DNA of 58,273 bases, counting the filler, from Candidatus Desantisbacteria bacterium CG1_02_49_89 (GTDB taxonomy: Bacteria; Desantisbacteria; UBA1551), in assembly GCA_001871075.1 (NCBI GenBank). It is 3 parts of 3 records of this genome, joined end to end, with 100 filler letters (N's around TTAATTAATTAA, not from the genome) between each part and the next. Parts side by side here need not be neighbours in the genome. Positions count along the whole stretch, not along the records: positions 1 to 26,830 come from MNUP01000083.1; positions 26,931 to 37,615 come from MNUP01000145.1; positions 37,716 to 58,273 come from MNUP01000049.1. One strand, given 5' to 3'. This document shows, in pieces, positions 3,701 to 57,472 of the stretch; within the stretch, counting starts at the first letter, position 1, and the number at the start of each line of letters is the position of its first letter. Under the pieces are notes generated by a model that was not told the DNA's origin, made no database searches, and saw nothing but the letters and a program-made list of their open reading frames with translations. The position numbers were made by a program, and so were the translations under genes.

Positions 3701-4206
3701 ACAAGAAAGCGGTTTCATCTCAGAAGGTCCTGGGCATAAGATCCCCGGGTACAGGCATGAATTCCGCAAATGTCCTGCTGAAAGCAGTGGGAAACACCGC
3801 GTATAACGGCAAAAACCCGCCGAAATACCTTAACGCCGAGTTCAACTGGGTAAAGATAAAGGACGTAACAGGGGAATGGCAGGATATTTATTCAAGCAAG
3901 ACCATAGAGGTTGAAAAGGGAAAGCCGGTCCTGGCACAGGCAAGCATGGGGAACCTGGGTGAGGCTGAATGGTTCGCGCCCGCTCTTCATCCCGGCGCCG
4001 GAGGCGTGTGCCTCGGGTCCAGGGAAGGGGACGTGAAATTCAGCCAGCCTGTACCGAAGGATACGCTGTACCTCGCTGATGCCGTTATCGCGGAATTCAA
4101 GATTTGCGACGGAATAACAAGGGACGCGAAGGTCGTTTTTGAGATGAACGCGAAGGACCGCTGCTGGTTCGGCGAGAAACTAACAATAACCTTGATACCT
4201 AAATAA
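724..4206 (+). CDS. Large multidomain glycoside hydrolase-like protein (GATase-like, CBM11-like, Ig-like and GH-A-clan TIM barrel domains)
   Basis: 1160-aa ORF with VKDGNFWLNGKKW at the barrel start, YDIIWEP (acid/base position), WAEFG (nucleophile position) and FWAKGD (CBM-like). Collinear paralogue of 7223-11452. Confidence 0.7.
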   Translation: MKTEEEMAKPKPALKIEDGKEGRIAVLKDGLPGMDQQAVEQAAAALRAKGFGVTFLSAEDACGEDLSRDNFFLYVIPNSRYYPAKGIEVLRKYIRGKGSLVTLGGPAFKNMLWKQKVAGKDQWLDRESFIELLSTTKQENIFLNFEEDDFSGWQPATNEPGSGSMEAAAGGVKGKCLKFDISNLSGWSTYYSPSIDGMFPEGHGLLCFWAKGDDKTPMMIIEMNEQDGSRWIGTVKLTAGWKYYVMSPEEFPYWQDSPTKDKRGKPGDYFNPENAVKINFGIAFSHTPMGGGAHTFWMDEVGTAKNPFGKFEQGMMSAPLVIEAISPSYKVYRTMEPVSSVAADQGQVIIDKNTSFAAPSDFVCPVHRPVGSGYKNKRRLRWIPLAKCFDKNKEERGAVISILVNNAPPFKGSMFAAFGMNDQGLYKDEAVKSALAEVCRRIRDGIFLFEAGSQYFSYYPGEDVTLGADVVNFGEKDADVTVRIQIIPSPPSQSSPVPPSKIGGQAKGEEDKTNVAAGLALQPVFKNEYKISLKAGQTGSAEFAWSLKDPKADLYVVRTELLRDGKVIDVITHEMGVLSDKKPAPDDFVTVKDGNFWLNGKKWYPVAINFWPLYISGTEPGEYHLGWIDPAYYEPAELEKDLERANALGMTMLSVQMGGKGNARNLMDFLRRCEKHGIKVNGFLNGASPIDFNEKTVREFMEAGKLKDNPAVFAYDIIWEPGNSMFNADGRKRWAKDWQAWINERYGSLDNAEADWGFTIQKDGAKALPPTDQQMSQDGEWRVMTAAYRRFMDDLMSRKWNDAHRRIKKYDPNHLISFRQGNTLPHDFALTACCKHIDFICPEGYSISNSDDGYNAAGFITRYVNFTTRGKPIYWAEFGQSVWDGSRMEPSLSAMKSQAEYHDRFYRMVLEAYAVGTAPWWWPGGYRVDEKSDYGIINPDGTFRPSAQLLKKYSPLMQQDKALRVPDHWITFDRDTHAGGYWYMAFHDGKDEYKKAVSSQKVLGIRSPGTGMNSANVLLKAVGNTAYNGKNPPKYLNAEFNWVKIKDVTGEWQDIYSSKTIEVEKGKPVLAQASMGNLGEAEWFAPALHPGAGGVCLGSREGDVKFSQPVPKDTLYLADAVIAEFKICDGITRDAKVVFEMNAKDRCWFGEKLTITLIPK

Positions 4207-4330
4207 ACCACAGGTTACCACCCTCCTACGCCATTTGTGGGTTCTCCTGCAAGCACGACCAGCTGCGGCGGGCAGGCAGGTTAACACTGTTTAAGACTAA
4301 AATTGATTTTAACAGGGATTCAAAGAGAAT

Positions 4331-4471
4331 TTACTGAGAATCGCATAATACCTTGACAGTTGTCTTTGCGAGCGATAGCGAAGCAATCTCGTTTTTAACG
4401 ACGGGATTGCCACAGGCTTCGCCTTCGCAATGACATCAAAAAACGTCAACCAATTAAGCGAATATCAATAA
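4331..4471. mobile_element. MITE-like element with imperfect TIRs and an internal GTC(T)TTGCGAG...CGCAATGAC palindrome
   Basis: Left end TTACTGAGAATCGCATAATACCTTGAC versus the reverse complement of the right end TTATTGATATTCGCTTAATTGGTTGAC. The interior resembles 26595-26764. Confidence 0.6.
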
Positions 4472-4561
4472 GCTGCCTTTTAGATCTCTTAAGTTCCCTG
4501 TAAGGTATTTATTTTAAACTGTGTTCACCTGTGGTTAAAAAAGTTTTATTCCGGAGGATCT

Positions 4562-5092
4562 ATGTTCTTTTTTCTGACGAAGTTCATAACCAATATAATA
4601 AAGGAATTGCACTCGAAAGCAAGCCCGGCGCAGATGGGATGCGGGGCGGCCCTGGGCGCGATAGTGGGCCTGACGCCGTTCTGGTGCCTGCACAACCTTG
4701 TTATACTCCTTATTATAATGCTTGTGAACGTAAGCTCCGGCGCCGCTGCGTTCGCCGCCGTCATTTTCTCCCTGATAGCGTTTCTGTTCGACCCGCTCGC
4801 CAACGCCATCGGTTACTGGCTGCTGGCGGACGTTAAAGCGCTTGAGCCTTTCTGGACAAGAATCTACAACATGCCTGTTATACCCCTTACAAAGTTCAAT
4901 AACACTCTCGTGCTTGGAAGCCTTGTCCTGTCTTTGATCCTTTTTTACCCGGTTTACCTGCTCGCGATCTACGGCGTTAAGCAGTACAGGGCTCACCTGA
5001 GAGAGAAGATAGAGAAGATAAAGTTCTTCAGGATACTGAATGCAACGAAGTTCGCGCAGTGGTACCTTCAAGTTAGTGGGCTGGCAAAATAG
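4562..5092 (+). CDS. TIGR03546-family (DUF2062-like) membrane protein
   Basis: SPAQM..GAALG..VGLTP and IPLTKFNNTLVLGS motifs; GGAGG RBS; adjacent to its usual TIGR03545 partner. Confidence 0.85.
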   Translation: MFFFLTKFITNIIKELHSKASPAQMGCGAALGAIVGLTPFWCLHNLVILLIIMLVNVSSGAAAFAAVIFSLIAFLFDPLANAIGYWLLADVKALEPFWTRIYNMPVIPLTKFNNTLVLGSLVLSLILFYPVYLLAIYGVKQYRAHLREKIEKIKFFRILNATKFAQWYLQVSGLAK

Positions 5093-5224
5093 TTAAGACA
5101 TTGCAAAAGTCAAATTGCAAATTGTAAAATGTAAATTTAAATTCCTTAAATCTACAATCTGCAATATTTTAATCACCGTAATCTCTTTAATAATCACCGT
5201 AATCATTTTTTAAGCGGAGCGAAA

Positions 5225-7093
5225 ATGAGGTGGAAGAATTTTATTCCTTTCGTAATAATAGTCGTCGCGGGGACAATCATATACCTTTTCTTCCTTGACA
5301 CGATCCTTAAGTTCAGCATTCAGAACCTTGGCAGTAGTATTGCAGGTGCAAAGGTCGAGGTGCGGAAGGTCCATTTTGACATTTTGAAGCTTTCCATAGA
5401 CGCCAGGGACCTGCGGGTGGGGAACAAGAAGGACGAATGGCGCAATCTTTTCGAGGCCGGAAAAATAAAGTTCGCCATGAACCCAGGGTTGCTTTTTGAA
5501 AGGAAGTTCATAATAGACGAGATGACTGCCGAAGGTGTAAAGTGGAACACCAGGCGCAAAACTTCCTGCAGGATTCCGGAGAAAAAGAAAAAGAAGGAAG
5601 ACGGGGAGGAAGATACCGAGACGGATGAGGTCAGGACAGAGAAACCCTCCTTTTTCCAGACGATGCTGAGCAAGGTGGATATAAAGCAGATCTTTGACGT
5701 GAACAAGATAAGCTCGGTGGCGGGAATAACGTCCATGAAGGCGGACGTGGAAACGAAAACCGCTTTCTGGCAGAAGGAACTTGCCGCCAGCGATTACAAA
5801 GCGCAGGCAGAAGCCATAGGAAAAACCGTCTCGGAAATAAAGGTAGGCGCGGGCATGAGCGTTGAGGACGCCCGCGTTGCTCTTGCGAAGCTCAACGAGG
5901 CGAAGGTACAGCTTGACAGCCTGACAGCGGATTACAACACGGTGAAGGCAAGGTTTGATTCCGATTATAAAACGGTTTCCGGTTATCCGGCCAGGATAAA
6001 CGACCTGAAACTGCTGGACATAAAGAAAATGATCGGCGAGGCAAAGGGCGGGATCGAACCGCAGGGCATAGCAAGGTCCGTGTTCGGGCCTGTGTGGATA
6101 GACAGGACAAATTCTGCCCTTTTCTGGGTCAAGAAGGGCAGGAAAATGATGCCGAAGAAATACAAGCTCAAAGCGCCGAAAAGAAGCAAGGGAATATGGA
6201 TCGCGTTCCCCGGAAAAAGGAACATGCCGGTTTTCCTCATAAAGAAACTGCTGCTGTCCGGAGAAGCGCCTAACGGGGTCGTGTTCAGCGGCATTATTAC
6301 GGGCATAACTTCAAGCCCCCCGGTCCTCGGCGAGCCGATCGTGGCGGATATAAAGGCATGGTTCCCCAATATAAACTCCGAAAAAACGTTCGCGAATATC
6401 AGGGCGGTGCTCGACCATACGACCTCGGACGCGAAGGATGATTTTACCGTCCTTGCCAGGAACTTCCCCATAAAGGAATTCAGGATCGGGCAGAGCGATG
6501 TCCTGCCCACGACCATGCATATCGGCGGCGCGGATATAAACATGGCCTTCGGCCTGCACGAGAAAGAACTTGATTCGAGCATTAATGTAGATTTTAATAA
6601 TGTCGGTTTCACGTCTGACGCCCCGCCGCAGACCGACCTGGCGAAGATAGCCGCTGACGCTCTCAGCAATGTAGGCAGGATAAGCGCGAAGGGCAGGATG
6701 TACGGCCCGATGAGCGCGCTTAAGTTCGAAATGAGCTCAAGCATGGACAGCATTCTTTCGCAGAAGTTCAACGAGGCGGTAGGAAAGCGGCTGAAAGAGG
6801 AAGAAGCAAGGATACGCGCCGAGATAGACAGGGCGGTTGACGCGGGTAAACAGGATCTGCAGGCGAAAACGGACGATTTCAAAAAGCAGGCCCAGTCGCA
6901 GATAGATGCGTATAAGGCGTCCCTGGATGCCCAGGCGCAGCTCGTGCAGGCGAAGACAGACGAGGTGAAAAAGCAGGGTGAGGCGTATGTGGACCAGGAA
7001 AAGAAGAAGGCTGAGCAGGAACTGCAGAAAAAAGGCGAAGAGCTTAAGAACCAGGCAGCTGACAAGCTGAAAGGCCTTTTCGGCGGCAAATAA
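5225..7093 (+). CDS. TIGR03545-family protein (AsmA-like, N-terminal anchor, C-terminal coiled coil)
   Basis: N-terminal TM followed by GAKVEV and NLFEAG motifs; ends KLKGLFG; paired with the TIGR03546-like gene. Confidence 0.8.
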   Translation: MRWKNFIPFVIIVVAGTIIYLFFLDTILKFSIQNLGSSIAGAKVEVRKVHFDILKLSIDARDLRVGNKKDEWRNLFEAGKIKFAMNPGLLFERKFIIDEMTAEGVKWNTRRKTSCRIPEKKKKKEDGEEDTETDEVRTEKPSFFQTMLSKVDIKQIFDVNKISSVAGITSMKADVETKTAFWQKELAASDYKAQAEAIGKTVSEIKVGAGMSVEDARVALAKLNEAKVQLDSLTADYNTVKARFDSDYKTVSGYPARINDLKLLDIKKMIGEAKGGIEPQGIARSVFGPVWIDRTNSALFWVKKGRKMMPKKYKLKAPKRSKGIWIAFPGKRNMPVFLIKKLLLSGEAPNGVVFSGIITGITSSPPVLGEPIVADIKAWFPNINSEKTFANIRAVLDHTTSDAKDDFTVLARNFPIKEFRIGQSDVLPTTMHIGGADINMAFGLHEKELDSSINVDFNNVGFTSDAPPQTDLAKIAADALSNVGRISAKGRMYGPMSALKFEMSSSMDSILSQKFNEAVGKRLKEEEARIRAEIDRAVDAGKQDLQAKTDDFKKQAQSQIDAYKASLDAQAQLVQAKTDEVKKQGEAYVDQEKKKAEQELQKKGEELKNQAADKLKGLFGGK

Positions 7094-7222
7094 CTCGTTC
7101 ATCGTGCTTCGTGCATCGTTCATCGCTGAAATAATATCCAGTAACAGTGTCCAGTATCCAGTAAAGACAAAATTCGCGGAAATTCGTGCTAATTCGTGGT
7201 TAAAATGTATTTAGGGGGAAAA

Positions 7223-11452: not shown

Positions 11453-11748
11453 CGTTCATCGTGCATCGCCCTGGCGGGTCGCGCATCGTCAAAAATAACC
11501 ACAGAGGCACAGAGGCACGGAGAAAAATTTCCACGAAAGCACTCCGCCCGTCTTCCAGCGGGCGAGACTTCGCCCACCTGAAAGGATGGGTGAGGAAACC
11601 ACGAAGGCACGAATGATTCAACTTCTTCCTCTCCCTTGACGGGAGAGGAAAGAGGTGAGGGTGGATTAAGCGTAACTCAGGGCTTTTCGAAGACCCGCCA
11701 ATCTTTAAGGAGGGAGCCCTGATTAATTGAAAATACGAGGAGCATCCC

Positions 11749-13272: not shown

Positions 13273-13331
13273 ATAAAAGGCGCTCAATAGTCCAATAGTT
13301 CATTAGCTCATTCGTATTCGTAAAACATCAT

Positions 13332-14091: not shown

Positions 14092-14201
14092 TTTTGTTTT
14101 ACTAAAGACCACCCGTATTTACCGCAAACGTTTGTTTTTCGGATTTAGCAGTTCCTTGTAAACTTGTAAACTTATAAACTCTGCAAACTGTTTATTTTTA
14201 C

Positions 14202-14319: not shown

Positions 14320-14383
14320 CTGTTTAGCGCACACGCTTACGGCGGGTAAACTGTAAAAGTGGAATAATCGTTAATCAGTGAAT

Positions 14384-14895: not shown

Positions 14896-14930
14896 TATTA
14901 AAAATAGAAAAAACAAGCATCTAGGAAAAA

Positions 14931-16857: not shown

Positions 16858-16859
16858 AA

Positions 16860-18997: not shown

Positions 18998-19813
18998 ATG
19001 AAACTGTGCATAAACGGCGCCACAACAATGCCGTATCAGCTTCAGGAAGATATTGTTTTCGCGCATAAAGCCAAGTTTACGGGAATAGAGATCTGGTATG
19101 ACAAGCTGAAAAAATTCCTTGCCGACGGCAACACCCTCGTAAAACTGCAGGAGCTTCTCTGGAGCGCGGAGCTGGAGCCGGTTTCTCTCTGCCCGGTCCC
19201 GCTGATAGCGTTCTCAGATAACGAACAGGCGATACAGGAAGCGGTAAAGGCGGCGCAGATCGCGGCGCAGATCGACTGTTCAACCATTCTCGTGTACCCG
19301 GCGGACGCCCAGCCGGAAGGCGTTACCAAAGAGGATGCGAAGAAAAAAGCCGCGGCAGCCCTGAAGGCCTACGCTGAGGCGATCCAGTCCTGCAAGGTAA
19401 AGATCGCGTTTGAACCCATAGGGATGCACCCGTATGTTCCAAAGCCGCAGGACGCGCTCGAAATAATAAGCGCAGCCGGCAGCGATAACCTCGGGATAAT
19501 GTTGGATACGTTCCACCTTTACAAGTCAGGCGTGACGCTTGAAGAGATAAAGAGCGTTCCGGTTGAAAAGCTGCTTCTAGTGCACGTGGGTGACTGCGAG
19601 GACGCGCCCAGGGAAAAGCTCGGGGCTGAACAGCAGGTTTACCCGGGCCTGGGGGTTGTTCCGCTCGTGGACATTTTCAGGATCCTGAGGGATAAAGGCT
19701 ACAAAGGATTCCTTTCAGTGGAGATATTCAGGCAGGACTACTGGAAGGAGAACCCTGAAAAGATCGCGGCTGACGCCAAGAAATATCTGGACGCTTTGCT
19801 TGCCAAACTGTAA
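18998..19813 (+). CDS. Sugar phosphate isomerase/epimerase (xylose isomerase-like TIM barrel, IolI-like)
   Basis: AFEPIG, LDTFH, VHVGD, PGLG and SVEIF motifs; GGAGG RBS before ATG 18998. Confidence 0.85.
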   Translation: MKLCINGATTMPYQLQEDIVFAHKAKFTGIEIWYDKLKKFLADGNTLVKLQELLWSAELEPVSLCPVPLIAFSDNEQAIQEAVKAAQIAAQIDCSTILVYPADAQPEGVTKEDAKKKAAAALKAYAEAIQSCKVKIAFEPIGMHPYVPKPQDALEIISAAGSDNLGIMLDTFHLYKSGVTLEEIKSVPVEKLLLVHVGDCEDAPREKLGAEQQVYPGLGVVPLVDIFRILRDKGYKGFLSVEIFRQDYWKENPEKIAADAKKYLDALLAKL

Positions 19814-19941
19814 CATCGTGCATCGTAACATAGTAACATCGTCAGGACAGTTAAGCCTGTTATGCCTGTTTAGCCAGTTTGGCCTGTTTGAATAATCACT
19901 GTAATCATCTTTTAAAATCACCGTAATCAAGAAAGGAAACA

Positions 19942-20994: not shown

Positions 20995-21018
20995 CGTGCA
21001 TCGTGCATCGTACGTCGC

Positions 21019-21106
21019 AATCCCCCCCCGTTTCCCCCTTTAGAAAAGGGGGATTGAGGGGGATTTCTAAACCTCCCCCTTTGAAAAAGGGGGATTGAGG
21101 GGGATT
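21019..21106. repeat. Tandem pair of CCCCCTTT-N-AAAGGGGGATTGAGGGGGATTT hairpin repeats
   Basis: Two copies are directly visible between the oxidoreductase and riboflavin synthase genes. Confidence 0.85.
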
Positions 21107-21116
21107 TTAAAACAAG

Positions 21117-21748: not shown

Positions 21749-21765
21749 CATTATTGTAGAATACA

Positions 21766-22617: not shown

Positions 22618-22723
22618 ATGGTCGTACGTCGTAAGTCGTACGTCGTGCGTAAAATCACTTAAAGCATCTAACGTAAGACGTATGACGTTCGACCTACGAC
22701 GGATAAAAATGGAGCGCAGCGCA

Positions 22724-23584: not shown

Positions 23585-23735
23585 AAGATTTCCACGAAAT
23601 CACGAAAGTATCACGAAAGCACGAAATTAACCACAGAGAACACAGAGAAATCTTTTCTAGTTTCAAACTTGACTCTTGATACTGAAAATAATCACCGTAA
23701 TCATCTTTTTAAAATCACTGTAATCCCAGAAAAAA

Positions 23736-27783: not shown

Positions 27784-28045
27784 GATGCCCCCTTGAAAAA
27801 ACAATGTTAAACCACAAGCCATAAATTTATCTTTAATAGCTCAAAGGTCAAATCGCCCCCAAGGGATCCCAGCGTCCAGTCCCGATATGCAATCGGGACT
27901 GCGGGGACAAATCGCCCGCCCTGCGCAAAGGCAGGGCAAGGTTTCGCCCCAAAGGGGCGGACAAAATTCCTTACCTTTGACTTTTAACTTCCAATATTTT
28001 TATTTTTCAACCATGAGCCATCAGCCATGAGCTATGAGCCAAAAG

Positions 28046-29314: not shown

Positions 29315-29502
29315 TCATCATCCTCCTTTAAACTCAAATTATGAGTTATGAATTATGGAATTCGAAAGCATTCTGCAAAACCACACGAGAATGTTGCCCG
29401 AAGGGCAAAATTATAAATCAGGGCTAAAGCCCTGAGTTACAATAAACACCCTTGCAGTTGATTCATAATTCAGCATTCATAATTCATAATTAATTACCTG
29501 TA

Positions 29503-30699: not shown

Positions 30700-30876
30700 T
30701 CTTCCCTCCTTTTAACTGAAGATTACGGTGATTTTTAACTGCGATTACGGTGATTATTTAAAAACTGATTGCGGTAACAAAACAACCACTATAATCTCTT
30801 TCGTAATCACTGTAATCATCTTTTAAAATCCCGCCACTTCGGCGGGTCGCCGCAGGGGCGACACTGTAATCAGTTT

Positions 30877-34467: not shown

Positions 34468-34666
34468 TTATTACTCCTCTGGAGTCAGCTCATAGCTCAT
34501 AGTTCATAGCTCATAGTAAGAATTAAATTTTAATTTGTTACCATGAGCCATCAGCCATGGGTTTTATCTGCTGAAAGCTAAATGCTGGTTGGAAAATGTT
34601 AAAATCTATGTCCATCCGTAGTTAAATTTGCATTTTACAATTTGCAATTTGACTTTTGACTTATTA

Positions 34667-36972: not shown

Positions 36973-37101
36973 CTATTCTCCTAATTTTTGATTACGGTGA
37001 TTTTTAACTACGATTACGATGTTAAATCTATAATTTTCCCGCCCAATCAGTCAGATTGGGCGAGGTCTCGCCCGCTGAAAAGACGGGCGGAGACTTTTGA
37101 C

Positions 37102-38963: not shown

Positions 38964-39182
38964 ATTGCTTCACTATGTTCGCAATGACAGAATGAGCCCC
39001 CTCACTTTAATTCTCTCCCACACTGGGGAGAGAGAAATTGATTCAATGGCATCAGGGCTGAAGCCCTGAGTTACGCCTCTGTGTCTCCGTGCCGTGCCCG
39101 CCAATCTTCAAGGCGTGGTCTCTGTGGGTAATTTTTCTACGATGAACGATGCACGACGAACGATGAACGAGAAGGAGTTGCT

Positions 39183-40136: not shown

Positions 40137-40303
40137 AGGATTAACCACGGAGGCACGGAGGCACAGAGAATTCTTCGGCTTTTACAAATGACAAATGACT
40201 AATGACTGCCCTTTAACCACGAATTAACTCGAATTGTTTGCTTCGCAACATTCTTTGTGGGTTACGTCGATAAACGACGAATTGCACGAATTTTGAATTC
40301 CAG

Positions 40304-41328
40304 TTTTAAAATAAATTCCTTGCTGTTGCGTTGACACGTTGATACGCTGACACGTTGACACGTTTTGAAAAAGGAGGCAGCAATGAAAGTCGGATTAAGC
40401 AGCTACAGCTTGATACAGGCGATAAACGCGAAGGAGATGGACCTGCCGGGCGCGGTGGCGTGGATAAAGGAGAACGGCGGCGAGCACGTGGAGATAGCGT
40501 ATGACATCTTTGACCAGCCGCAGATGGCGGAAACGCTGAAGAAGAAGGCGAAGGACGTGGGGATAGATATTTCAAGTTACACGATAGGCGCCGGGTTCCT
40601 GCAGGCGAATAAGGAAGATTTTGAAAAGGAAGTAGCAAGGGTGAAAAAGCAGGTGGACATAGCCGCGGCGATGGGGGTTAAGCTTATGCGCCACGACGCG
40701 GCGTCCAGGCCGCCCAACGAGTGCGTGATCGAGCAGTTTGACAAAGACCTGCCCCAGATAGTTGACGGTTGCGGCAAGGTCGCGGACTACGCGAAACAGT
40801 TCGGCATCACGACAAGCGTTGAGAACCACGGGTATTTCATGCAGGCAAGCGATAGAATAAGGCTGCTTGTCAAAAAAGTCAACAGGGAAAATTTCAGGAC
40901 AACCCTGGACGCGGGGAATTTCATGTGCGTTGACGAGGACCCGATAGCCGCGACAAAGAACAACATATCCATCGCTTCCCACGTTCACTTCAAGGATTTC
41001 TATTTCAGGCCCGCTCACGCGAATCCCGGAGAGGGCTGGTTCCCCACCCTGCACGGCAATTTCCTGAGAGGCTCGATCGTGGGCCAGGGAGACATCGACA
41101 TAAGGACGGTTCTTAAGATCATAAAGGATTCCGGGTACAACGGATGCCTGTCAATCGAGTTCGAGGGCTTAGAAGAATGCAAGATGGGCTCAAGGGCGGG
41201 AATGGCGTTCGTTAAGAAGGCTCTGGCTGAGATATAAATAAGTCCACAGTCCACGGTCCACCGTTTAAAGCGTGTCAACGTATCAACGTATCAACGTGTC
41301 AGAGCAAAAACAAGGAATTTATTTAAAA
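40304..41328. repeat. About 65-bp inverted repeat pair (40304-40370 / 41264-41328) bracketing the isomerase gene
   Basis: TTTTAAAATAAATTCCTTG...(TGACACGT)n...GAAA versus its near-exact reverse complement after the stop. Confidence 0.9.
40383..41237 (+). CDS. Sugar phosphate isomerase/epimerase
   Basis: MRHD, VENHG, LDAGNF, HFKDF and SIEFEG motifs. Confidence 0.88.
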   Translation: MKVGLSSYSLIQAINAKEMDLPGAVAWIKENGGEHVEIAYDIFDQPQMAETLKKKAKDVGIDISSYTIGAGFLQANKEDFEKEVARVKKQVDIAAAMGVKLMRHDAASRPPNECVIEQFDKDLPQIVDGCGKVADYAKQFGITTSVENHGYFMQASDRIRLLVKKVNRENFRTTLDAGNFMCVDEDPIAATKNNISIASHVHFKDFYFRPAHANPGEGWFPTLHGNFLRGSIVGQGDIDIRTVLKIIKDSGYNGCLSIEFEGLEECKMGSRAGMAFVKKALAEI

Positions 41329-42522: not shown

Positions 42523-42636
42523 AAACATTTCAAATTTCAAATTGCAAATTTCAAATTGCAAATTTAATCCCTTGAACTTCGGAACCTTTTTAACATCCAG
42601 CATTTAGCATCCAGCATCCAGCAAATAAAGGGAAAC

Positions 42637-43434: not shown

Positions 43435-43574
43435 CAGTCTGCATCTGTAACTCAGGACTTTTCGAAGACCCGCCAATTCTTAAGGTGGGAGTCCTGAGAA
43501 TCTCAAACCTAAAGGTTTGAGTTACTCAAAACAGTGTTTACCTGTGTTAACCTGTGGTAGAAAAGGAGGTTTTA

Positions 43575-44743: not shown

Positions 44744-44773
44744 AGTTAAAGGTGAAAAGTTGAAGGTTAAAGG

Positions 44774-45970
44774 TTGAAAACTATACTGCTTACTATATTT
44801 TTAATTGGGGTGGGTTTAAATACCGGAGTTACAGCGGAAGGAGCAAAATTGGAGCAAAAGACAGAGGAGTTTTTTCCTATAGGGGTGTGGTTTGAGGGAG
44901 CTCCGGGACCGGCTGAATATCCTGCTGACAAGGCAGGCGCGAAGAAATATTATGACCGCTGTTTCGCAGACCTTGCCGCTCACGGGTTTAACTGCGTTGC
45001 TGTGCCGAACTGCCCTGAATCTTTGTGGCAGACGCTCCTGGAGTCAGCGCAGGAGAACAAAATAAAAGTCATTCTCGAGGTCAGACCGCTTGTGGAACTT
45101 ATCTGCCGGGACAAACCCTTGAAAGAAACGGAAGTTTACAAGACCGTGAAAAGAGTTGTTGATAAGATAGGCAATTACTCTTCCCTTCTGCGGTACCAGG
45201 TCAGGGATGAACCCCCTCCTGAGCAGGTCCAAAACTGGCTTGTGGTCAGGAACGCGCTCGAAGAGATCGACCCGTCCCGCCCCGCGTTCTCCTGTTTCTG
45301 CAACCCGGATTCTCTGAAGGCCGCGACTGACGCCGCTAAATTCTCCGAAACATGTTTTGATATCTACCCGCATTACGCGAAAGTGCCTGCGCAGACCCTG
45401 GGTAATTTCATAGAATTGCTTTATAAATTCAAAAGGGCGTCCAGGGATAATGCGATGTGGGCGGTGCTGCAGTCCTTTGCCAAGCCTGAAGCGTGGCGGT
45501 ATCCTTCGCCTGAGGAACTGCGAGCAGTGACATATTTGTCTATTGCGGCAGGAGCAAAAGGTATTTTCTATTTCCTTTACCAGACAATGCCGAAGCATTC
45601 AGAAGTGCTTGACGGGCTTATTAACGTTGACGGCAGCCCAAGGCCATTATATTCCACGGCTGAAACGCTCGCGCGCGAGCTCGGAAAGCTTGCCCCGCTC
45701 TTGATGTCTCTGAAGCCTGCGGAACAGACGGCTGAAATTTCCGGGCCTGCCCGCGCAGGCAGTTTTAAGGACCCGAATGGCAATCCTGTTTTGATAGTGG
45801 CAAGCGCGCGGCCCGGTGAGGGTGTGACCGTGACCGTGAGCGTGACGACGCTTGAAACAGGAAGCTGGAAGGACGCGCTGACCGGCGAGGTATTTTCCGC
45901 CAAGAACGGAGAACTCGCGATCCCGCTCGCTCCCGGCGCCGGCCGAGTCCTCAAAAGCACAAAAGATTAA
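44774..45970 (+). CDS. Secreted hypothetical glycoside-hydrolase-like TIM-barrel protein
   Basis: Signal peptide; FFPIGVW, GFNCV, RDEP, DIYP and GAKGIFYF motifs. Confidence 0.65.
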   Translation: MKTILLTIFLIGVGLNTGVTAEGAKLEQKTEEFFPIGVWFEGAPGPAEYPADKAGAKKYYDRCFADLAAHGFNCVAVPNCPESLWQTLLESAQENKIKVILEVRPLVELICRDKPLKETEVYKTVKRVVDKIGNYSSLLRYQVRDEPPPEQVQNWLVVRNALEEIDPSRPAFSCFCNPDSLKAATDAAKFSETCFDIYPHYAKVPAQTLGNFIELLYKFKRASRDNAMWAVLQSFAKPEAWRYPSPEELRAVTYLSIAAGAKGIFYFLYQTMPKHSEVLDGLINVDGSPRPLYSTAETLARELGKLAPLLMSLKPAEQTAEISGPARAGSFKDPNGNPVLIVASARPGEGVTVTVSVTTLETGSWKDALTGEVFSAKNGELAIPLAPGAGRVLKSTKD

Positions 45971-46508
45971 CCACGGAGGCACGGAGACACAGAGGAATAT
46001 TTGGCTCATATTAAAAACTTACCACGGAAGCGCGGAAAGACGGAAACACGGAGAATTCTTCGGCTTTTACAAATGACTAATGACTGTTTTTTTAACCACG
46101 GATTAGCACGGATTTCCACGGATAAGAACCTTTTGGGAACTGTAATAGAGCCCTAGGAGTAGAGCACTGGGAGTAAACCCTTTAGGGTCGTTTAAACGGG
46201 GCTCCCTCCTTAAGGACTGGCGGGTCTTCGAAAAGCCCTCCGAAGAGTCCGTATACTCCGTCCTTTCGGAGTCATCGGACCTACTCCTAAATAATTTCCA
46301 CGAAAGCCCTCTGCTGCTCCGAAGAACTTGTAGCAAAACGCGAGGACCTCCGGGTCAGAACTGAGCTAATGACCCTACGGCACTGAAGGCACAGAGACAC
46401 AGGGAAATCTTTTCTGGTTTCAAACTTGACACTTGATACTTGGCTCTTGATACTTAAGATAATCACCGTAATCGCAGTTGAAAATCACCGTAATCAAAAG
46501 GAGTCAAA

Positions 46509-47507
46509 GTGATAAGATTTGGCCAGATCGGGGTCGGAGGGGAAGGCACTATATACACGCCGATAATAGCGGAAAATCCCGCGTGCAGGCTTGCAGCGGT
46601 GTGCGACATCAACAAGGAAGTCCTTGACAGGGTTGCCGGGGAACGGAAGGCGAATGCTTACACGGATTTCAGGGAAATGATAGAGAAGGAAGACCTGGAT
46701 GCGGTTGCCATAATCCTCCCCCACTATCTTTATCCTGAGGCAGTGGGGCTTGCCGCGAAAAAGAACCTTCACATCCTGCAGGAAAAGCCGTTCGCGAGGA
46801 ACCTGCCAGACGCGAAAAAGATAGTCAAAGCGCTGAAAGGCTACAAAGGAATATACATGCTGAGCGCGCAGAGGAAATACAGCCCTGCTTTCCAGAAGGC
46901 GAAAGAGATAATAAAGAGCGGCAGCATCGGGAAAGTCCAGCTTATCGAGGCGTACGCGCAATACAGGTTTACCAGGACTTCTGAGTCTTTCGGGTGGAGG
47001 ACGAAAAAGAAGCTTTCCGGAGGGCTTGCTATAATTGATTTCGGGTGGCATATGCTTGACACGATATACTGGATAAAGGGCATGCCTTCAAGGGTTTACG
47101 CGAATACCTGCGGCATAAAAGCGCTTGAGGGAAAGAACGACATAGACGAAACCGCGAACATAATACTTGAATACGCGGACGGTTCATCAGCGGTGGTGCT
47201 GACCTCTATTACCTCCATCGGCAGGTGCTGGGAGTTCACATTTCAGTGCACCAAGGGTACAATAAAATTCTCGCCCTGCTTAGTTGAAACCTATGACAAG
47301 GAAAAACTGATTGAAAAGCTGGATATCACGAAAACAGAGCCTGAAATGTTCGCGGCGCAGTTCAACGTATTCCTGAACGCGGTGCAGACAGGGAAAAAAC
47401 CGCTGACAGGCCCAGCGTACGGCCTGAACCTTTCCCGCATCGCCGAGGCCGCGTACCGGTCAGCTTCGTCCGGCAAGCCAGTGCTCCTTAAAAACTTAAC
47501 TGGTTAA
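46509..47507 (+). CDS. Gfo/Idh/MocA family oxidoreductase
   Basis: Rossmann start, EKP and GG..IDFGWH motifs; AGGAG RBS. Confidence 0.88.
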   Translation: MIRFGQIGVGGEGTIYTPIIAENPACRLAAVCDINKEVLDRVAGERKANAYTDFREMIEKEDLDAVAIILPHYLYPEAVGLAAKKNLHILQEKPFARNLPDAKKIVKALKGYKGIYMLSAQRKYSPAFQKAKEIIKSGSIGKVQLIEAYAQYRFTRTSESFGWRTKKKLSGGLAIIDFGWHMLDTIYWIKGMPSRVYANTCGIKALEGKNDIDETANIILEYADGSSAVVLTSITSIGRCWEFTFQCTKGTIKFSPCLVETYDKEKLIEKLDITKTEPEMFAAQFNVFLNAVQTGKKPLTGPAYGLNLSRIAEAAYRSASSGKPVLLKNLTG

Positions 47508-47618
47508 AAGGGTTAAAGGGGTTAAAAAGGTTAAAAGTTGAAAGCTTATGCCCGAGCTTACAAGCTAACAAGCTTATAAGTTTACAAGCAAGTTTGATTT
47601 AAAAAGAGTACTTTGATT

Positions 47619-48533: not shown

Positions 48534-48720
48534 TCTACTATTTCATTTCGTGCTTTCGTCCGTAGCGCCATCCGCTCAGCTCTGGCGCGCAGGCCCCTGC
48601 GTTGAGCTGCGCAGCAGCTGCAGGGGGCACTTTCGTGCTTTCGTGGAAATCCTTTACACCGTAATCTCTTAGATAATCACTGTAATCATTTTTAAATAAT
48701 CACTGTAATCAGGGGGCTCA

Positions 48721-50670: not shown

Positions 50671-50929
50671 GAATTTCCACGAAAGAAGCTTTTTACAGGG
50701 ATCTTCGAAAGAGATTTAAAAAACCAAGCTATAGATTCACAAGATTTCCACGAAATCACGAAAGTGTCACGAAATCACGAAAGAATAACCACGGAGGCAC
50801 GGAGATTACAGTTTTAACTTGACACTTGATACTTAGCTTGCCCGCCAATCTTGCTGGGCGGGACTCTTGACACTTAAAATAATCACTGTAATCGTCAGTT
50901 CGAAAATCACCGTAATCAAGGAGTGAAGG

Positions 50930-52105: not shown

Positions 52106-52256
52106 TAGCCATAAGGACATTGCAAAAGTCAAATTGTAAATTGCAAATTTTAAATTTAAGTCACGGGATCCCATAATTTTACAATTTACATTTTGCAATT
52201 TGAAATTTGAAATGAATTCTGCCGACGTATCTCTCAAATATTATTTAGGAGGCTGA

Positions 52257-53336: not shown

Positions 53337-53725
53337 TAAAGTTAAAGGGGTTAAAAAGGTTAAAAGGGTTAAAAGTTAAATCCGTGCGAATCCGTGGAAA
53401 TCCGTGGTTGCAGAAGCAGCCATTTTTAAAAAGCTAAAAACTTATAAGGTAGTCTCCCGCCACTTCGGCGGGTCGCCGTAGGGGCGACAGTGAATTCAGT
53501 GAACTCAGTGGCAAATTTTTAAAGCAGTTTATAGAGTTTACAAGTTTACAAGTAAAATTCGTGCAAATTAGTGCCGTAGGGTCATCGATTCGGTTCTGAC
53601 CCGAAGGCCCCAGCGTTACGGTTTCGTAGAAACCTGCAGGGGTTAATTCGTGGTTAAAGTGAATTTTTTCGTGCTTTCGTGGTACTTTCGTGCTTTCGTG
53701 GAAATCTTTAGTTGTGGGGGTTGAT

Positions 53726-56170: not shown

Positions 56171-56271
56171 TCACCACAGAATTTAACCACAGGTCAATAC
56201 AGGTAAACACTGTTTTGAGTAACTCAAACCTTCTCGAAGACCCGCCAATCTTTAAGGAGGGAGGTTTGATA

Positions 56272-57308
56272 TCAGGGCTGAAGCCCTGAGTTACAATAAA
56301 ATTCCATGCCGTTGATTCATAACTCATAATTCATAACTCATAATTATATTTAGCGGAGCAGCGATGAAGGCGATATCGTTCGGCGAAGTGCTTTGGGACA
56401 TAATCGAGGGAAAGGAATACCTTGGCGGCGCCCCTTTTAACCTTGCCGCGCACCTCGCGAAGCTGGGATGCAGTTCCCGGATGATCTCAAGGGTCGGTGA
56501 GGACGAGCGCGGCAGCAAGGTGCTTGAAGAAATGAAACACCTTGGCGTGGACCCCTCTTTCATGCAGAAGGACAAGGACCACCCAACAGGCACGGTCAAC
56601 GTCAGGCTTTCATTCGCAGGCGAGCCGGAGTTCACCATAAACAAGAACGCGGCTTATGATTTCATAGAGTTTGATAAAAAGCTTGAAGCCGGGATAAAAG
56701 AAGAAAAATTCGACGCATTCTGCTTCGGCACCCTTGCGCAGAGGAGCGATGTCACTAAAAAAACGCTTTACACCCTTCTGGGCAGCGTGAACTCAAACCT
56801 GTTCTTCTACGACGTGAACCTGCGCCAGAAATATTATTCCAAAGAGATCATTAATAAGTCCCTTTCAGTTTCAGGCATAGTGAAGCTTAACGATGACGAG
56901 GCAAAGGTCCTGCCTGAGATCGTTTTCAATAAGAAAATGGATGAAAAGGAATTCGCAACAGAGCTGTGCCGCGGATACCGGGTAAAGATCGTGTGCGTAA
57001 CAAGGGGCGGGAACGGGTGCGCTGTATATTCGGGCGGTGAATTCAGGGAGATCCCGGGCATAAAGGTGAAGGTCATAGACACGGTCGGCTCAGGTGACGC
57101 TTTCAGCGCTGGTTTCCTTTTCAAGCACTGCTCAGGCAAAGACCCGTTTGAAGCCGCGGAATTCGCCAACAGGCTGGGCGCGTTCGTCGCCTCAAAGCGC
57201 GGCGCGATACCGGACTACGACCTTAATTATGAATTATGAGTTATGCCCCTCGGGGCATTATGAATCAACGGCAAGGATATTTATTGTAACTCAGGGCTTT
57301 AGCCCTGA
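56272..57308. repeat. About 75-85-bp inverted repeat pair (56272-56346 / 57224-57308) bracketing the PfkB gene
   Basis: TCAGGGCTGAAGCCCTGAGTTACAATAAA...GCCGTTGATTCATAACTCATAATTCATAA versus its reverse complement, which carries an extra 17-nt hairpin. Confidence 0.9.
56364..57239 (+). CDS. PfkB-family carbohydrate kinase (fructokinase-like)
   Basis: GGAPFN, DVNLR, KLNDDE and DTVGSGDAF motifs. Confidence 0.92.
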   Translation: MKAISFGEVLWDIIEGKEYLGGAPFNLAAHLAKLGCSSRMISRVGEDERGSKVLEEMKHLGVDPSFMQKDKDHPTGTVNVRLSFAGEPEFTINKNAAYDFIEFDKKLEAGIKEEKFDAFCFGTLAQRSDVTKKTLYTLLGSVNSNLFFYDVNLRQKYYSKEIINKSLSVSGIVKLNDDEAKVLPEIVFNKKMDEKEFATELCRGYRVKIVCVTRGGNGCAVYSGGEFREIPGIKVKVIDTVGSGDAFSAGFLFKHCSGKDPFEAAEFANRLGAFVASKRGAIPDYDLNYEL

Positions 57309-57331
57309 ATACGAATATATAAGTGGTTTAG

Positions 57332-57412
57332 GGTAGCGGTCCCGATTTATCGGGACATTTTCGCGTAGGGGCGGGCTTGCCCGCCCTTCGTAGGGCAAGG
57401 CTTTAGCCTTGC
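57332..57412 (+). repeat. Cluster of three tandem GTAG-type REP-like hairpins
   Basis: GTAGCGGTCCCGATTTATCGGGAC, GTAGGGGCGGGCTTGCCCGCCC and GTAGGGCAAGGCTTTAGCCTTGC (the last also occurs at about 25225). Confidence 0.8.
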
Positions 57413-57472
57413 GGAACGTCATTGCGGCCCGCTGAAGAGGCGGGGAAGCAATCCCGCGGGAGAGAATTTATT

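Follow-up and report, generated by a model that had tools for sequence, protein, structure and literature searches.

Why are the spaces between genes in Candidatus Desantisbacteria bacterium CG1_02_49_89 filled with short tandem repeats, and why does each kind of repeat face a fixed way relative to stop and start codons? We addressed these questions in a 58,273-nt stretch of three joined parts of this genome (hereafter the window), for which a sequence-only reading had described polarised repeat mosaics and proposed an integron-like exchange of cassettes. The polar arrays are real and non-random, and the spacers are a many-family case of a known, unexplained repeat class. We put the probability at about one half that the arrays are decayed, gene-less shells of small, selfish hairpin cassettes resembling rRNA intervening sequences (IVS).

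Tandem arrays in the spacers

A detector of periods 6–11 masked 1,003 of 7,954 non-coding bases (12.6%) versus 286 of 50,319 coding bases (0.57%); 20 spacer shuffles averaged 4.7 masked bases (maximum 26). With overlaps removed, TRF reported 73 arrays of these periods in the window, of which 51 are intergenic and 22 lie in coding sequence. The latter are weak and mostly two-copy. At least one array is present in 27 of the 36 window spacers of 30 nt or longer, in agreement with the view that most spacers are tandem-repeat mosaics, and the window arrays form 17 single-linkage clusters, some merging two families, so the earlier figure of more than ten families is correct. The motif positions given by the sequence-only reading were all located within a few bases, although those at 19813 and 20993 lack the exact TTCATCG word and hold the degenerate variants CATCGTG and TGCATCG. 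Neither of the two spacers in a low-G+C island (14.9–18.1 kb) carries an array.

Window positions 2814–13767 agree with an independent metagenome assembly (L117) at 10,953 of 10,954 bases, arrays included, which excludes an assembly artefact as the source of the arrays. Three pairs of near-identical assemblies differ at 1, 3 and 2 of 10,954, 5,400 and 3,186 aligned columns, respectively, with no difference inside arrays, and thus give no demonstration of rapid slippage. The array-flanked genes are housekeeping genes (for example metK, ahcY and riboflavin synthase in the window; L32, plsX, fabG, acpP, fabF and purine genes in the 21 extra contigs described below) and not promoterless accessory cassettes.

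Table 1. Repeat features of the window, in window coordinates.
Position	Strand	Feature
4207..4561	+	Inverted end words ACCACAGGT (4207) and ACCTGTGGT (4527) around GTCATTGCGAG-type hairpin repeat
5100..5204	+	Stop-side ATTGCAA array 5100–5137; start-side double box ATCACCGTAATC 5172–5183, 5193–5204
7095..7163	+	Hybrid: stop-side TTCATCG-type array 7095–7125, TATCCAG array 7135–7163; folding no better than shuffles
11453..11538	+	Stop-side TTCATCG array broken by 15-nt GC hairpin (~11469–11483); CACAGAGG x2.9 at 11500–11522; CCACGAAA word at 11531
11672..11738	+	CAGGGC...GCCCTG hairpin, filled copy with 28-nt element in apical loop
18882..18986	+	Full palindrome: TTCATCG arm 18882–18906, CGATGAA-type arm 18959–18986; RNA fold z −3.17
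19810..19928	+	Stop-codon-overlapping array 19810–19842; 9-nt array 19855–19890; double box 19895–19906, 19917–19928 ahead of next start
20995..21111	+	Stop-side TGCATCG array 20995–21011; G-rich GGGGGATT units and C-rich complements 21033–21111
22621..22650	+	Stop-side GTCGTAC array x4.3
23593..23725	+	Composite spacer (5-prime module): CACGAAA and CACAGAGA arrays, ACTTGAY units, then double box 23691–23702, 23714–23725
28011..28041	-	Stop-side GCTCATG array; family forms arms around four-helix-bundle gene in contig L122
28879..28909	-	TGTCAACG-family 8-nt array x3.9 within ahcY; frame open throughout, 10 residues encoded
29337..29491	-	Full palindrome in metK–ahcY spacer: TTATGAA arm 29461–29491, TTCATAA arm 29337–29362, enclosing GC hairpins; RNA fold z −4.46
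30721..30872	-	Box palindrome upstream of metK: double box 30721–30732, 30743–30754, facing inverted copies 30806–30817 and one split by two GC hairpins (~30830–30872); RNA fold z −4.96
34487..34662	-	Four arrays: stop-side AAGTCAA, ATTGCAA 34625–34662; GCTCATG pair 34541–34559, 34487–34516
36990..37001	-	Start-side box; degenerate second copy adjoining
39139..39170	+	Start-side CGATGAA array x4.6; start codon 12 nt on
40146..40364	+	Stop-side CACGGAGG 40146–40168, ACAAATG 40184–40206; start-side CGTTGACA array 40329–40364
41241..41301	+	AGTCCAC and TGTCAACG arrays, both stop-side; TGTCAACG complementary to the start-side array of this gene
42527..42623	+	Hybrid: ATTTCAA/ATTGCAA array 42527–42565, start-side CATCCAG array 42594–42623; fold z −0.87
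43446..43556	+	CAGGAC hairpin with 28-nt loop insert; empty CTCAAACC...GGTTTGAG hairpin; start-side CCTGTG array 43534–43556
44745..44775	+	GTTAAAG array spanning 30-nt spacer, stop to start
45972..46495	+	Long spacer: CACGGAGG-type arrays 45972–46052, ACCACGGATT 46095–46123, ACTTGAY array with -35-like hexamers 46424–46455, double box 46462–46473, 46484–46495
47502..47589	+	GGTTAAAAG array 47502–47537, beginning 6 nt before annotated gene end and so overlapping stop codon; start-side AGCTTACA array 47555–47589
48540..48710	+	TTTCGTG array interrupted by ~70-nt cluster of GTAG-tagged GC hairpins; double box 48676–48687, 48699–48710
50749..50917	+	CACGAAA array, CACGGAGG words, ACTTGAY array split by CCCGCC hairpin (50841–50862); double box 50882–50893, 50906–50917
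52131..52213	+	Full palindrome with AAATTGY and TTTGCAA-type arms; RNA fold z −2.60
53341..53700	+	Six arrays, stop-side GTTAAAAGG through start-side TTTCGTG; GTAG-tagged hairpins mid-spacer
56186..56343	+	Hybrid spacer 56171–56363: ACCACAGG words, CTCAAACC hairpin with 28-nt insert, complete CAGGGC hairpin, then start-side TTCATAA array 56317–56343
57225..57330	+	Mirror half-element after pfkB-family gene: TTATGAA array overlapping gene end, split by 11-nt hairpin; CAGGGC hairpin next

Orientation, pairing and nesting

Polarity was assessed in the window together with 21 metagenome contigs (256,723 nt, 226 intergenic arrays). The contigs were chosen because they share the window's non-coding 12-mers, shared repeat words being the sole basis of their lineage assignment, and their genes were predicted with our own ORF caller. 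Each family places one strand after stops and its complement before starts. For arrays no more than 25 nt from a gene end, the family's majority rule is kept in 77 of 84 spacer-level observations (null mean 52.7, maximum 63), and under stricter clustering in 75 of 77 arrays (null mean 50.9, maximum 61); over all distances it holds for 123 of 146 (null 93.7, maximum 109). All seven families found beside genes on both strands retain one rule. Base composition supplies no such rule (purine-rich arrays are 54 of 79 on the stop side and 21 of 44 on the start side), nor do stop codons within the family units, tallied by hand.

Orientation also switches only once per spacer. Among spacers with at least two typed arrays, 35 of 38 follow the order of left arms and then right arms (L*R*; shuffle mean 20.1, maximum 28), with 31 L-to-R transitions versus 5 R-to-L. 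The earlier description of polarised mosaics with stop-side and start-side arms is supported. Where a co-directional spacer has an array at either end (37 cases), the two sides share a family in 15, which exceeds chance (null mean 5.25, maximum 12), and differ in 22, matching the description of many spacers as hybrids. Matched arms flanking one gene show no clear excess (6/28; null 3.4; P 0.10). The four spacers singled out as long hairpins do fold better than their shuffles (z −3.2, −4.5, −5.0 and −2.6), and three hybrids fold no better (z +1.3, −0.9 and +0.3). Hairpins are confined to a minority of spacers, for which RNA processing stems are possible. A same-family inverted partner in the same spacer was detected for 32 of the 226 arrays, and 28 of 160 unpaired arrays have at least one inverted "ghost" word in their spacer; most arrays therefore bear no trace of a lost arm.

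Nested insertion is directly visible. A 28-nt insert occupies the loop of two of six CAGGGC hairpins and one of two CTCAAACC hairpins, and GC hairpins interrupt four arrays. By reading of the sequence, GTAG-tagged GC-rich hairpins also occur in the window, for example at 25220–25245, 53470–53490 and 57350–57420.

Box pairs, gene-bearing cassettes and recombinases

The 12-nt box (Table 1) points toward a start codon in 15 of its 16 window occurrences, and its 10-mers, in a wider set of 36 flanks, face a start in 28, with the complement facing a stop in 6. At nine distinct sites across the window and extra contigs, before nine different and unrelated genes, the boxes belong to a conserved 5-prime module with the order CACRGAK array, ACTTGAY array, A/T junction, box, about 10 nt, box, SD, start. 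The module carries -35-like hexamers. In all, 34 promoter-like sites were counted where 19.4 ± 4.2 were expected, and two of these lie inside the array at 46426–46460. This module hints that some repeats are used by the cell. At least 118 metagenome stretches, spanning 0.23 to 0.66 in G+C, contain the box pair. In another organism, a ~150-nt element bounded by terminal inverted repeats has this pair as its core and is present at 10 loci with unrelated flanks.

The sequence-only reading mentioned four-helix-bundle and GxxExxY genes beside similar repeats in other genomes, and both were found in other metagenome contigs. GCTCATA arms bracket a TIGR02436 four-helix-bundle gene in contig L122 (4103–4480), a 2+2 box palindrome surrounds a GxxExxY gene in L158 and L151, and a further GxxExxY gene in L122 is flanked by CCACGAAT palindromes; TIGR04256 was scored on the L122 copy, and the genes of L158 and L151 were identified as homologues by tblastn. 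The window itself has neither a cargo gene nor a copy whose arms are nearly identical; on the cassette reading it holds gene-less shells and single arms only. For array-armed elements of this lineage, neither a target-site duplication nor an empty site was found. The 44 window proteins include no integrase or transposase, as had been noted. Among the extra-contig ORFs scanned (148 of 162), there is no integron integrase, and the sole tyrosine recombinase is XerD-like (132.6 bits versus the integron-integrase cut-off of 265).

Origin of the arrays and related systems

An ORF-bearing IVS of 23S rRNA consists of a long stem of inverted arms with a small S23p/four-helix-bundle gene (Pfam PF05635) in the loop. 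The L122 layout is alike, with a PF05635-type gene inside an arm family that is present in the window. The elements described here differ in lying between protein genes and not inside rRNA, in having a second cargo type (GxxExxY) and in their gene-less shells in the window, and RNase III excision would here be putative. We propose that the founder of each family was a hairpin, [array X ... array rcX], whose arms consisted of short tandem words. Complete forms, present in other metagenome contigs, carry a small loop gene encoding either a four-helix-bundle "23S rRNA IVS protein" or a GxxExxY PD-(D/E)XK protein. Because a palindrome is identical on both strands, the X arm would always adjoin the upstream stop and the rcX arm the downstream start; descent from palindromes would thus account for polarity without a base-composition or stop-codon rule. 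New elements inserting into older ones would leave one switch point per spacer and arms of mixed families. Slippage may lengthen arrays and let them drift. Small GC-rich REP-like hairpins and the loop-seeking 28-nt element nest in arrays, hairpin loops and even genes. On this view the spacers are both a graveyard and a nursery for small, non-coding palindromic repeats.

This origin is suggested by the near-absolute polarity (75/77), the single switch (35/38), the same-family arms (15/37), the window arm families that enclose genes in L122, L158 and L151, the spread of the box pair and its ~150-nt element, the nested inserts and the array-free low-G+C island. The arrays, their polarity, the single switch, the nested inserts and the arm families shared with gene-bearing cassettes are observed; the cassette origin and mobility of the window copies, and any effect on RNA, are inferred. 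Counted against it are the few partnered arrays, the lack of window cargo and of a target-site duplication or empty site, the identity of arrays in near-identical assemblies, the 5-prime module and the linkage of contigs by repeat words alone.

Alternatively, the arrays may be cis-acting UTR elements whose arms pair into intercistronic stems, as in rRNA intervening sequences, that are cut by RNase III or protect message ends, with solitary arrays binding a single-strand-binding protein of ~7-nt footprint (cold-shock, S1 or CsrA-like). Base pairing alone gives functional sense to the reverse complement before starts, four spacers fold, arrays lie 0–25 nt from stops and starts and sometimes overlap the stop codon, and, by reading of the sequence, CACGGAGG units hold a Shine-Dalgarno-like GGAGG after stops and its complement, CCTCC, before starts. 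Arrays unchanged between near-identical assemblies agree with this, and MacGregor (2015; PMC4679880) argues for a post-transcriptional role of comparable repeats. We nevertheless consider it a tentative possibility, on the unlikely side: 22 of 37 two-ended spacers are hybrids, and those folded gained nothing over shuffles; arms show no sense-strand G·U excess (35 G·U versus 47 A·C, P 0.22) and are not clearly matched around one gene; terminator-like sites are not in excess (23 versus 25.1 expected); no Rfam match was found; and at least 17 unrelated word families would require many different binding proteins.

It is more doubtful that the mosaic is in part a portable module of promoter and leader, in which ACTTGAY arrays supply tandem -35-like hexamers, the A/T-rich junction a -10-like element and two ATCACYGTAATC boxes an operator or leader immediately 5' of the ribosome-binding site, other arrays being slippage by-products. 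The common order at nine sites, the orientation of the boxes and the excess of promoter-like sites all fit, but the -35 to -10 geometry varies between sites by our reading, the box pair is also a palindrome arm, a mobile-element core elsewhere and a bracket of GxxExxY genes, and stop-side arrays are left unaccounted for. The exchange of cassettes at attC-like palindromic hubs by a site-specific recombinase, as first proposed, we regard as highly improbable. Hairpin-capable sites do lie directly 3' of many reading frames, left and right arms often differ in family (22/37) and the pfkB-family gene (56364–57239) sits between mirrored half-elements ~70 nt long; against this stand the failure to find an integron integrase in the window or in the 148 of 162 extra-contig ORFs scanned, the core metabolic and translation genes, some with promoter-like modules, the absence of a common core site among at least 17 arm clusters and the lack of enrichment of same-family arms around one gene. 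Moreover, each half of the hybrid spacer 56171–56363 has its own complete central hairpin, which indicates juxtaposition and not crossover at a shared centre.

The palindromic spacers resemble integron attC sites in forming imperfect palindromes directly downstream of reading frames, and differ in that no integron integrase was found among the proteins scanned, and in the housekeeping genes, the many unrelated arm families and the arms before starts. In the case of the cyanobacterial STRR heptamers and the "small dispersed repeats" of Nostoc, tandem heptamers in intergenic regions reportedly coexist with tiny GC-rich hairpins, which insert into other repeats. This combination is shared with the window; phylum and words differ. 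To our knowledge, strict polarity with a single switch per spacer has not been described for these cyanobacterial repeats.

Polar heptamer arrays are already in print (Rehm et al., 2015, PMC4692102; MacGregor, 2015, PMC4679880). Rehm et al. (2015) describe G-rich heptamers (GGGNATC and GGGGA(C/T)T) in Xanthomonas and Nostoc. Their tandem 7-nt units are enriched in the gaps separating co-directional genes and mostly sit no more than 50 bp from an ORF end; past a stop they are found on the coding strand, and ahead of a start on the non-coding one. They show no tie to surface genes and generally no link to mobile elements. The window arrays follow the same mirrored rule, and the GGGGGATT units are the sole family here resembling these heptamers. 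Unlike those heptamers, the arrays form at least 17 clusters, most not G-rich and without quadruplex capacity, and are degenerate, 7–10 nt in unit and often hairpin arms. MacGregor (2015) reports TAACTGA direct repeats in marine Beggiatoaceae, some Cyanobacteria and Bacteroidetes, mostly just upstream of starts in one orientation, with occasional reversed sets after stops; they overlap stop codons, their patchy cross-phylum distribution suggests horizontal spread and a single-strand-binding protein with a ~7-nt footprint is proposed. Heptamer direct repeats near starts and stops in opposite orientations, overlapping stop codons, are shared with the window. That work presents one word with hardly any inverted pairs (one indirect repeat), in contrast to the many families and hairpin pairs here, where a 12-nt box and not a heptamer immediately precedes ribosome-binding sites.

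For the REP, BIME and REPIN elements and RAYT transposases treated by Bertels and Rainey (2011; PMC3116915), the difference is that our tandem-word arms are not REPs and that the Y1 transposase of contig L162 scored above the cut-off of the IS200 model (150.2 bits against 55) and below that of the RAYT model (42.6 bits against 80). The likeness lies in extragenic mosaic palindromes after stops, in the GTAG-tagged GC-rich hairpins and in the hairpins that flank the L162 transposase gene, one of which recurs in the window at 57625–57650.

Tandem-repeat arrays and their orientation

The window of this carbohydrate-degrading bacterium encodes approximately 45 genes, including glycoside hydrolases, GFO/IDH/MocA oxidoreductases, xylose-isomerase-like barrels, sugar kinases, metK, ahcY, riboflavin synthase, and a polysaccharide cluster; these lie on the plus strand up to ~26.3 kb and again beyond 37.6 kb, and on the minus strand between 26.9 and 37.6 kb. 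The spacers between them are rich in arrays, that is, blocks of 6–11-nt tandem repeats. A simple period-6–11 repeat finder, with shuffled spacers as background, masked 1,003 of the 7,954 non-coding bases (12.6%) vs. 286 of the 50,319 coding bases (0.57%), and the shuffled spacers gave a mean of 4.7 masked bases (~0.06%). By TRF, once overlaps had been removed, 51 arrays were found in the same 7,954 non-coding nucleotides and 22, mostly two-copy, in the 50,319 coding ones. At least one array is present in 27 of the 36 window spacers of at least 30 nt, and the window arrays fall into 17 single-linkage clusters, which bears out the description of these spacers as repeat mosaics in an earlier, sequence-only reading; the motif positions listed there were all recovered, off by a few bases at most and with degenerate units at two of them. 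The repeats are real and not an assembly artefact, because L117, a contig of an independent metagenome assembly, matches window positions 2814–13767 at 10,953 of 10,954 bases, arrays included.

For comparison, metagenome contigs were scanned for the double box, a pair of 12-nt words preceding a start codon, which yielded at least 118 stretches; as their G+C content spans 0.23–0.66, many different organisms carry the double box. By density of non-coding 12-mers in common with the window (at least 8 per kb), 23 loci were chosen, with L117 left out as a duplicate of the window and L165 later dropped as a duplicate of L123, so that 22 loci remained (the extra contigs). The TRF array table covers 21 of these and the window (256,723 nt), L121 (1,653 nt, one called ORF) standing outside this total. 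Genes were taken from our own codon-usage-scored ORF picker for the extra contigs and from a hand-curated list for the window. This set holds 226 intergenic arrays, 125 nearest to a stop codon and 101 nearest to a start codon, and 68 coding ones.

Arrays were assigned to signed families by their common words and scored per spacer against the family's majority configuration, namely a word X read on the sense strand downstream of a stop codon, or its reverse complement rcX upstream of a start codon. Of the 84 observations no more than 25 nt from a gene end, 77 follow the family rule (null mean 52.7, maximum 63); stricter clustering (8-mers, same period) gives 75 of 77 in the window and 21 contigs (null mean 50.9, maximum 61), and the orientation relative to the nearest start or stop that had been proposed from the sequence thus stands against its null. 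Across all distances, 123 of 146 arrays conform under the stricter clustering (null 93.7, maximum 109), and the same rule is kept by all seven families that adjoin genes on both strands. At the 10-mer level, the mirrored rule holds in 975 of 1,088 cases for array sequence (null 66.7%) and in 1,920 of 2,318 for non-array repeats (null 65.0%), the latter consisting mostly of the box, which obeys it in 34 of 36 flanks. Order within spacers is likewise regular: where a co-directional spacer has at least two typed arrays, all stop-type arms precede the start-type arms in 35 of 38 cases (shuffles: mean 20.1, maximum 28 of 38), the types being defined on the same data, and adjacent array transitions number 31 L-to-R vs. 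5 R-to-L, again with family types from the same data.

Base composition does not explain this polarity, since 54 of 79 stop-side arrays and 21 of 44 start-side arrays are purine-rich. Nor do stop codons within the repeat units: in a hand tally, they occur only in the start-side form of five families, only in the stop-side form of three, in neither form of three, and in both forms of three. Terminator-like sites are without excess (23 vs. 25.1 ± 5.8), and the sole Rfam match is a tRNA-Pro.

Box modules, hairpins, and spacer palindromes

The 12-nt box ATCACYGTAATC occurs 16 times in the window vs. 0.31 expected, and 15 of these copies point at a start codon, usually as pairs ~22 nt apart directly upstream of the ribosome-binding site. 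Among the metagenome loci, an ORF start follows 61 of 133 boxes (117 non-duplicate loci) vs. 885 of 3,000 random positions, a background too high for a clean test. No publication with the four box 12-mers in a relevant context was found, judged by titles. Several of the paired boxes belong to a conserved composite of ~100 nt (the 5-prime module) that reads, in order, CACRGAK words, an ACTTGAY array, an A/T junction, a box, ~10 nt, a second box, and the ribosome-binding site. Standing before unrelated genes, this composite may be a portable promoter or leader. In another organism (G+C ~0.41), the boxes form the core of a ~150-nt element, in which a box pair faces an inverted pair (a 2+2 box hairpin) between inverted ends (GTAATAGGTTAGTT... 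/ ...AACTTAACTCTTAC), with an extra 22-nt hairpin insert in some copies. As regards MITEs, the copies in the window are degenerate, and it is this element of the other organism that recurs with inverted ends at 10 loci.

Insertion of one repeat into another can be seen among the smaller hairpins. A 28-nt sequence lies exactly in the apical loop of two of six CAGGGC...GCCCTG hairpins and one of two CTCAAACC...GGTTTGAG hairpins, the remaining copies of both being clean empty sites for it. Other GC-rich hairpins split arrays, and small ones lie within genes whose reading frames are unbroken. These GC-rich hairpins alone resemble the short, GTAG-tagged, extragenic imperfect palindromes of the REP/REPIN class; the tandem-word arms of the window fall outside the REP definition. 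A Y1 transposase gene in L162, which scores above the cut-off of the IS200 model but below that of the RAYT model, has CCCCGCGG...CCGCGGGG hairpins on both flanks, and this flanking hairpin recurs once in the window. No Y1/RAYT gene flanked by its own REPs was found in the window, and the window copy of the CCCCGCGGCTTGCCGCGGGG hairpin, which together with a common left flank is found on both sides of the Y1 gene in L162, looks like a solitary element end.

In 15 of 37 cases, the arms at opposite ends of a spacer belong to the same family (null mean 5.25, maximum 12), as against 6 of 28 for arms around a single gene (null 3.4, P 0.10). The natural palindromic unit is therefore the spacer and not the gene.

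Positions of repeats, elements, and genes in the window and, where an L-number is given, in metagenome contigs
Feature	Position	Remark
GC-rich hairpins splitting arrays	11453–11490, 48540–48645, 50826–50880, 57225–57265	some GTAG-tagged
CCCGCC...GGCGGG-type hairpins	2214–2235, 11087–11111	inside frames 724–4206 and 7196–11452
GGGGGATT units	21033–21111	G-runs
Arrays of the GCTCATA arm family	28011–28041, 34487–34559	
8-nt array, TGTCAACG family	28879–28909 (−)	3.9 copies, 100% matches
5-prime module	23632–23735, 46380–46508, 50790–50929	six further sites in L109, L122, L126, L129, L168, L198
~150-nt box-core element	L083, L085, L093, L096, L098, L112, L171, L181, L182, L197	unrelated flanks
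Y1 transposase gene	L162 9585–10037	
Hairpin as on flanks of the Y1 gene	57625–57650	
CCCCGCGGCTTGCCGCGGGG hairpin with common left flank	57600–57650; L162 9100–10560	once in window; both sides of Y1 gene in L162
Four-helix-bundle gene	L122 4103–4480	TIGR02436
Tandem palindromes before GxxExxY gene	L122 8490–8915	at least three 100-nt units
tRNA-Pro	14383–14458	
Partial tRNA-like pieces	14200–14330	two, upstream, CCCGCCCAGCAAGATTGGCGGG hairpin in each
Direct repeat with CCCGCCGATGAGGCGGG hairpin	14535–14600, 14832–14897	at least 65 nt, spacing 297 nt
Low-G+C island	14921–18159	G+C 0.33–0.37, directly downstream of tRNA-Pro
N runs	26831–26874, 37616–37659, 37672–37715	176 in total
YhcG-type nuclease genes (DUF1016)	37824–38963; L173 5580–6596	

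Cargo genes and the origin of the arrays

The sequence-only reading had placed similar repeats beside four-helix-bundle and GxxExxY genes in other genomes, and this proved right outside the window, in L122, L158, and L151. A Pfam scan of 148 of the 162 ORFs of the extra contigs (the 14 longest or end-cut ORFs omitted, the one ORF of L121 included) recovered one four-helix-bundle "23S rRNA IVS" protein and, by PF13366, two GxxExxY proteins, the copy in L122 also passing TIGR04256; tblastn added further GxxExxY genes in L158, L151, and L190. In L122, a GCTCATAG arm and a CTATGAGC arm (GCTCATA arms), of the same family as two window arrays, enclose the four-helix-bundle gene, while the GxxExxY gene of this contig, within a polysaccharide gene cluster, follows tandem units that are each a CCACGAAT/ATTCGTGG palindrome, copies of which surround it. 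In L158 and L151, which derive from two organisms and encode proteins ~66% identical, the GxxExxY gene sits inside a 2+2 box palindrome beside a tRNA gene. The gene contexts in L173 and L190 are less clear than in these three contigs. None of the 44 window proteins matches PF05635, TIGR02436, or TIGR04256, and the window would hold only gene-less arms and shells, that is, hairpin cassette remnants. Judged by title, no paper among the literature matches listed connects GxxExxY or IVS proteins with repeat arms.

We consider it about an even bet (roughly 0.5) that the array families began as palindromic hairpin elements and have since decayed, an origin that is plausible but unproven. Each family would have been founded as a hairpin element of the form X ... 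rcX and, because the two strands of a palindrome read alike, X would always face the upstream stop and rcX the downstream start. A palindromic origin needs no composition rule, which fits our finding none. New elements would insert inside older ones, keeping a single switch point and permitting hybrid spacers with left and right arms from different families, and slippage and decay would leave solitary arms; insertion within an older element is observed directly for the 28-nt loop insert. Further signs of selfish, nested elements are the splitting of arrays by GC-rich hairpins, the ~150-nt box-core element of another organism, and the absence of arrays from the low-G+C island. The main weakness of this reading is that about three quarters of the arrays are without trace of a partner: a same-family inverted partner was detected in the same spacer for only 32 of 226 arrays, and a single inverted word elsewhere in the spacer for only 28 of 160 unpaired arrays (4.39 per kb vs. 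2.31 in other spacers). Neither an empty site nor a target duplication turned up for any array-armed element of this lineage. The arrays are, moreover, identical in three near-identical contig pairs, a small sample of consensus assemblies, which also weakens this reading; the variation in unit number between close strains that characterizes contingency (phase-variation) repeats was not found in these pairs.

A role at the RNA level, as intercistronic stems or protein-binding arrays, is rather unlikely in our estimate. Four spacers described as hairpins in the sequence-only reading, at 18882–18986, 29337–29491, 30721–30872, and 52131–52213, do fold better than shuffles (z of -3.2, -4.5, -5.0, and -2.6), and the RNA processing stems suggested there are possible for this minority; folding of three hybrid spacers was not better than shuffles, and an excess of G·U on the sense strand is absent (35 G·U vs. 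47 A·C, with 137 transversions, in 20 spacers; P 0.22), which makes strong selection for an RNA stem on the sense strand less likely. Flank-to-flank RNA duplex energies per gene were dropped as a test, because flanking sequences overlap where spacers are short and the energies mainly reflect self-complementary GC hairpins. Unlikely, in our estimate, is an explanation by a promoter and leader role of the ACTTGAY/box module, although the module is common to nine sites and promoter-like sites are in excess (34 vs. 19.4 ± 4.2). Both the RNA-level and the promoter or leader role are compatible with a selfish origin. An integron-like model, in which cassettes are exchanged at attC-like hubs, is highly improbable: the palindromic hubs and hybrids on which it was built are real, but none of the 44 window proteins is an integrase, and the sole tyrosine recombinase in the 148 scanned ORFs is XerD-like and below the cut-offs of the integron models. 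The arms come from 17 clusters, and the genes flanked by arrays, such as metK, ahcY, riboflavin synthase, L32, plsX, fabG, acpP, fabF, and pur genes, are not accessory cassettes; those adjoining arrays in the extra contigs are housekeeping genes, which also include S20, ATP synthase, trigger factor, and genes of purine, histidine, and tryptophan synthesis.

Returning to descent from hairpin elements, a broader version can be put forward tentatively. A single, very widespread and unpublished class of hairpin cassette might have left behind the tandem-word arms, the pairs of 12-nt boxes, and the hybrid hubs alike as its remnants; complete forms of this class would carry a gene for a GxxExxY PD-(D/E)XK nuclease or a four-helix-bundle protein. 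Spread by insertion into hairpin apices would build up spacers nested like an onion, each with only one switch point, and some shells would later have been co-opted as modules with a promoter or leader function. If true, this would explain the mirrored polarity of bacterial heptamer repeats (STRR, GGGNATC, TAACTGA) generally.

Relation to known repeat classes and local features

STRR heptamers are known from cyanobacteria and small dispersed repeats from Nostoc, and polar heptamer repeats of this kind have reportedly been described since 1990. To our knowledge, no mechanism has been given for them in the reports since 1990 and 2015. A mirrored placement rule holds for G-rich heptamers of Xanthomonas and Nostoc, with the coding strand after stop codons and the non-coding strand before start codons (Rehm, 2015; PMC4692102). 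Start-proximal TAACTGA heptamer repeats are distributed across phyla (MacGregor, 2015; PMC4679880). The window arrays share with this polar heptamer-type class (STRR; Rehm, 2015; MacGregor, 2015) the ~7-nt tandem unit, the enrichment in non-coding DNA, and proximity to ORF ends with mirrored strand (75 of 77). They depart from the G-rich, quadruplex-capable units of the Rehm subclass in that just 48 of the 79 stop-side arrays have more G than C, and 22 have more C than G; G-runs occur only in the GGGGGATT units. The window arrays are thus a many-family, very dense form of a known repeat class, and they show the placement rule in extreme form, with 17 or more word clusters, arrays in three quarters of the spacers, almost absolute polarity at gene ends, and a single orientation switch in each spacer. 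In the species-genome collection, MetK identity is 63% at best, and the top relatives come from many candidate phyla; among the 80 MetK-relative loci examined, the box is absent from all and none reaches the array density of the window.

The arm families are tied to gene-bearing hairpin cassettes of other contigs and, if that tie is true, a testable origin would be available for a repeat class of many phyla, together with a genetic context for two very large uncharacterised families, the GxxExxY and four-helix-bundle "IVS" proteins. Arrays run across stop codons, are found inside one enzyme gene or more, and take up positions where a ribosome-binding site or promoter would be expected; they therefore affect gene calling and expression models in uncultured lineages. 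The 8-nt array of the TGTCAACG family lies within the open frame of ahcY (S-adenosylhomocysteine hydrolase), where it encodes a peptide between two conserved domains.

Several local features accompany the arrays. The low-G+C island has the look of an acquired island of the defence type and codes for an AAA_21/AAA_15 ATPase, a DUF4276 protein, and unannotated ORFs; neither of its two spacers (14.9–18.1 kb) holds a repeat array. A hairpin-bearing direct repeat stands right after the tRNA-Pro gene, and runs of N fall in two spacers of the window. Finally, GTCATTGCGAG/CGCAATGAC-type repeats lie on either side of a gene for a YhcG-type PD-(D/E)XK nuclease in the window, and a second gene for a nuclease of this type is present in L173.
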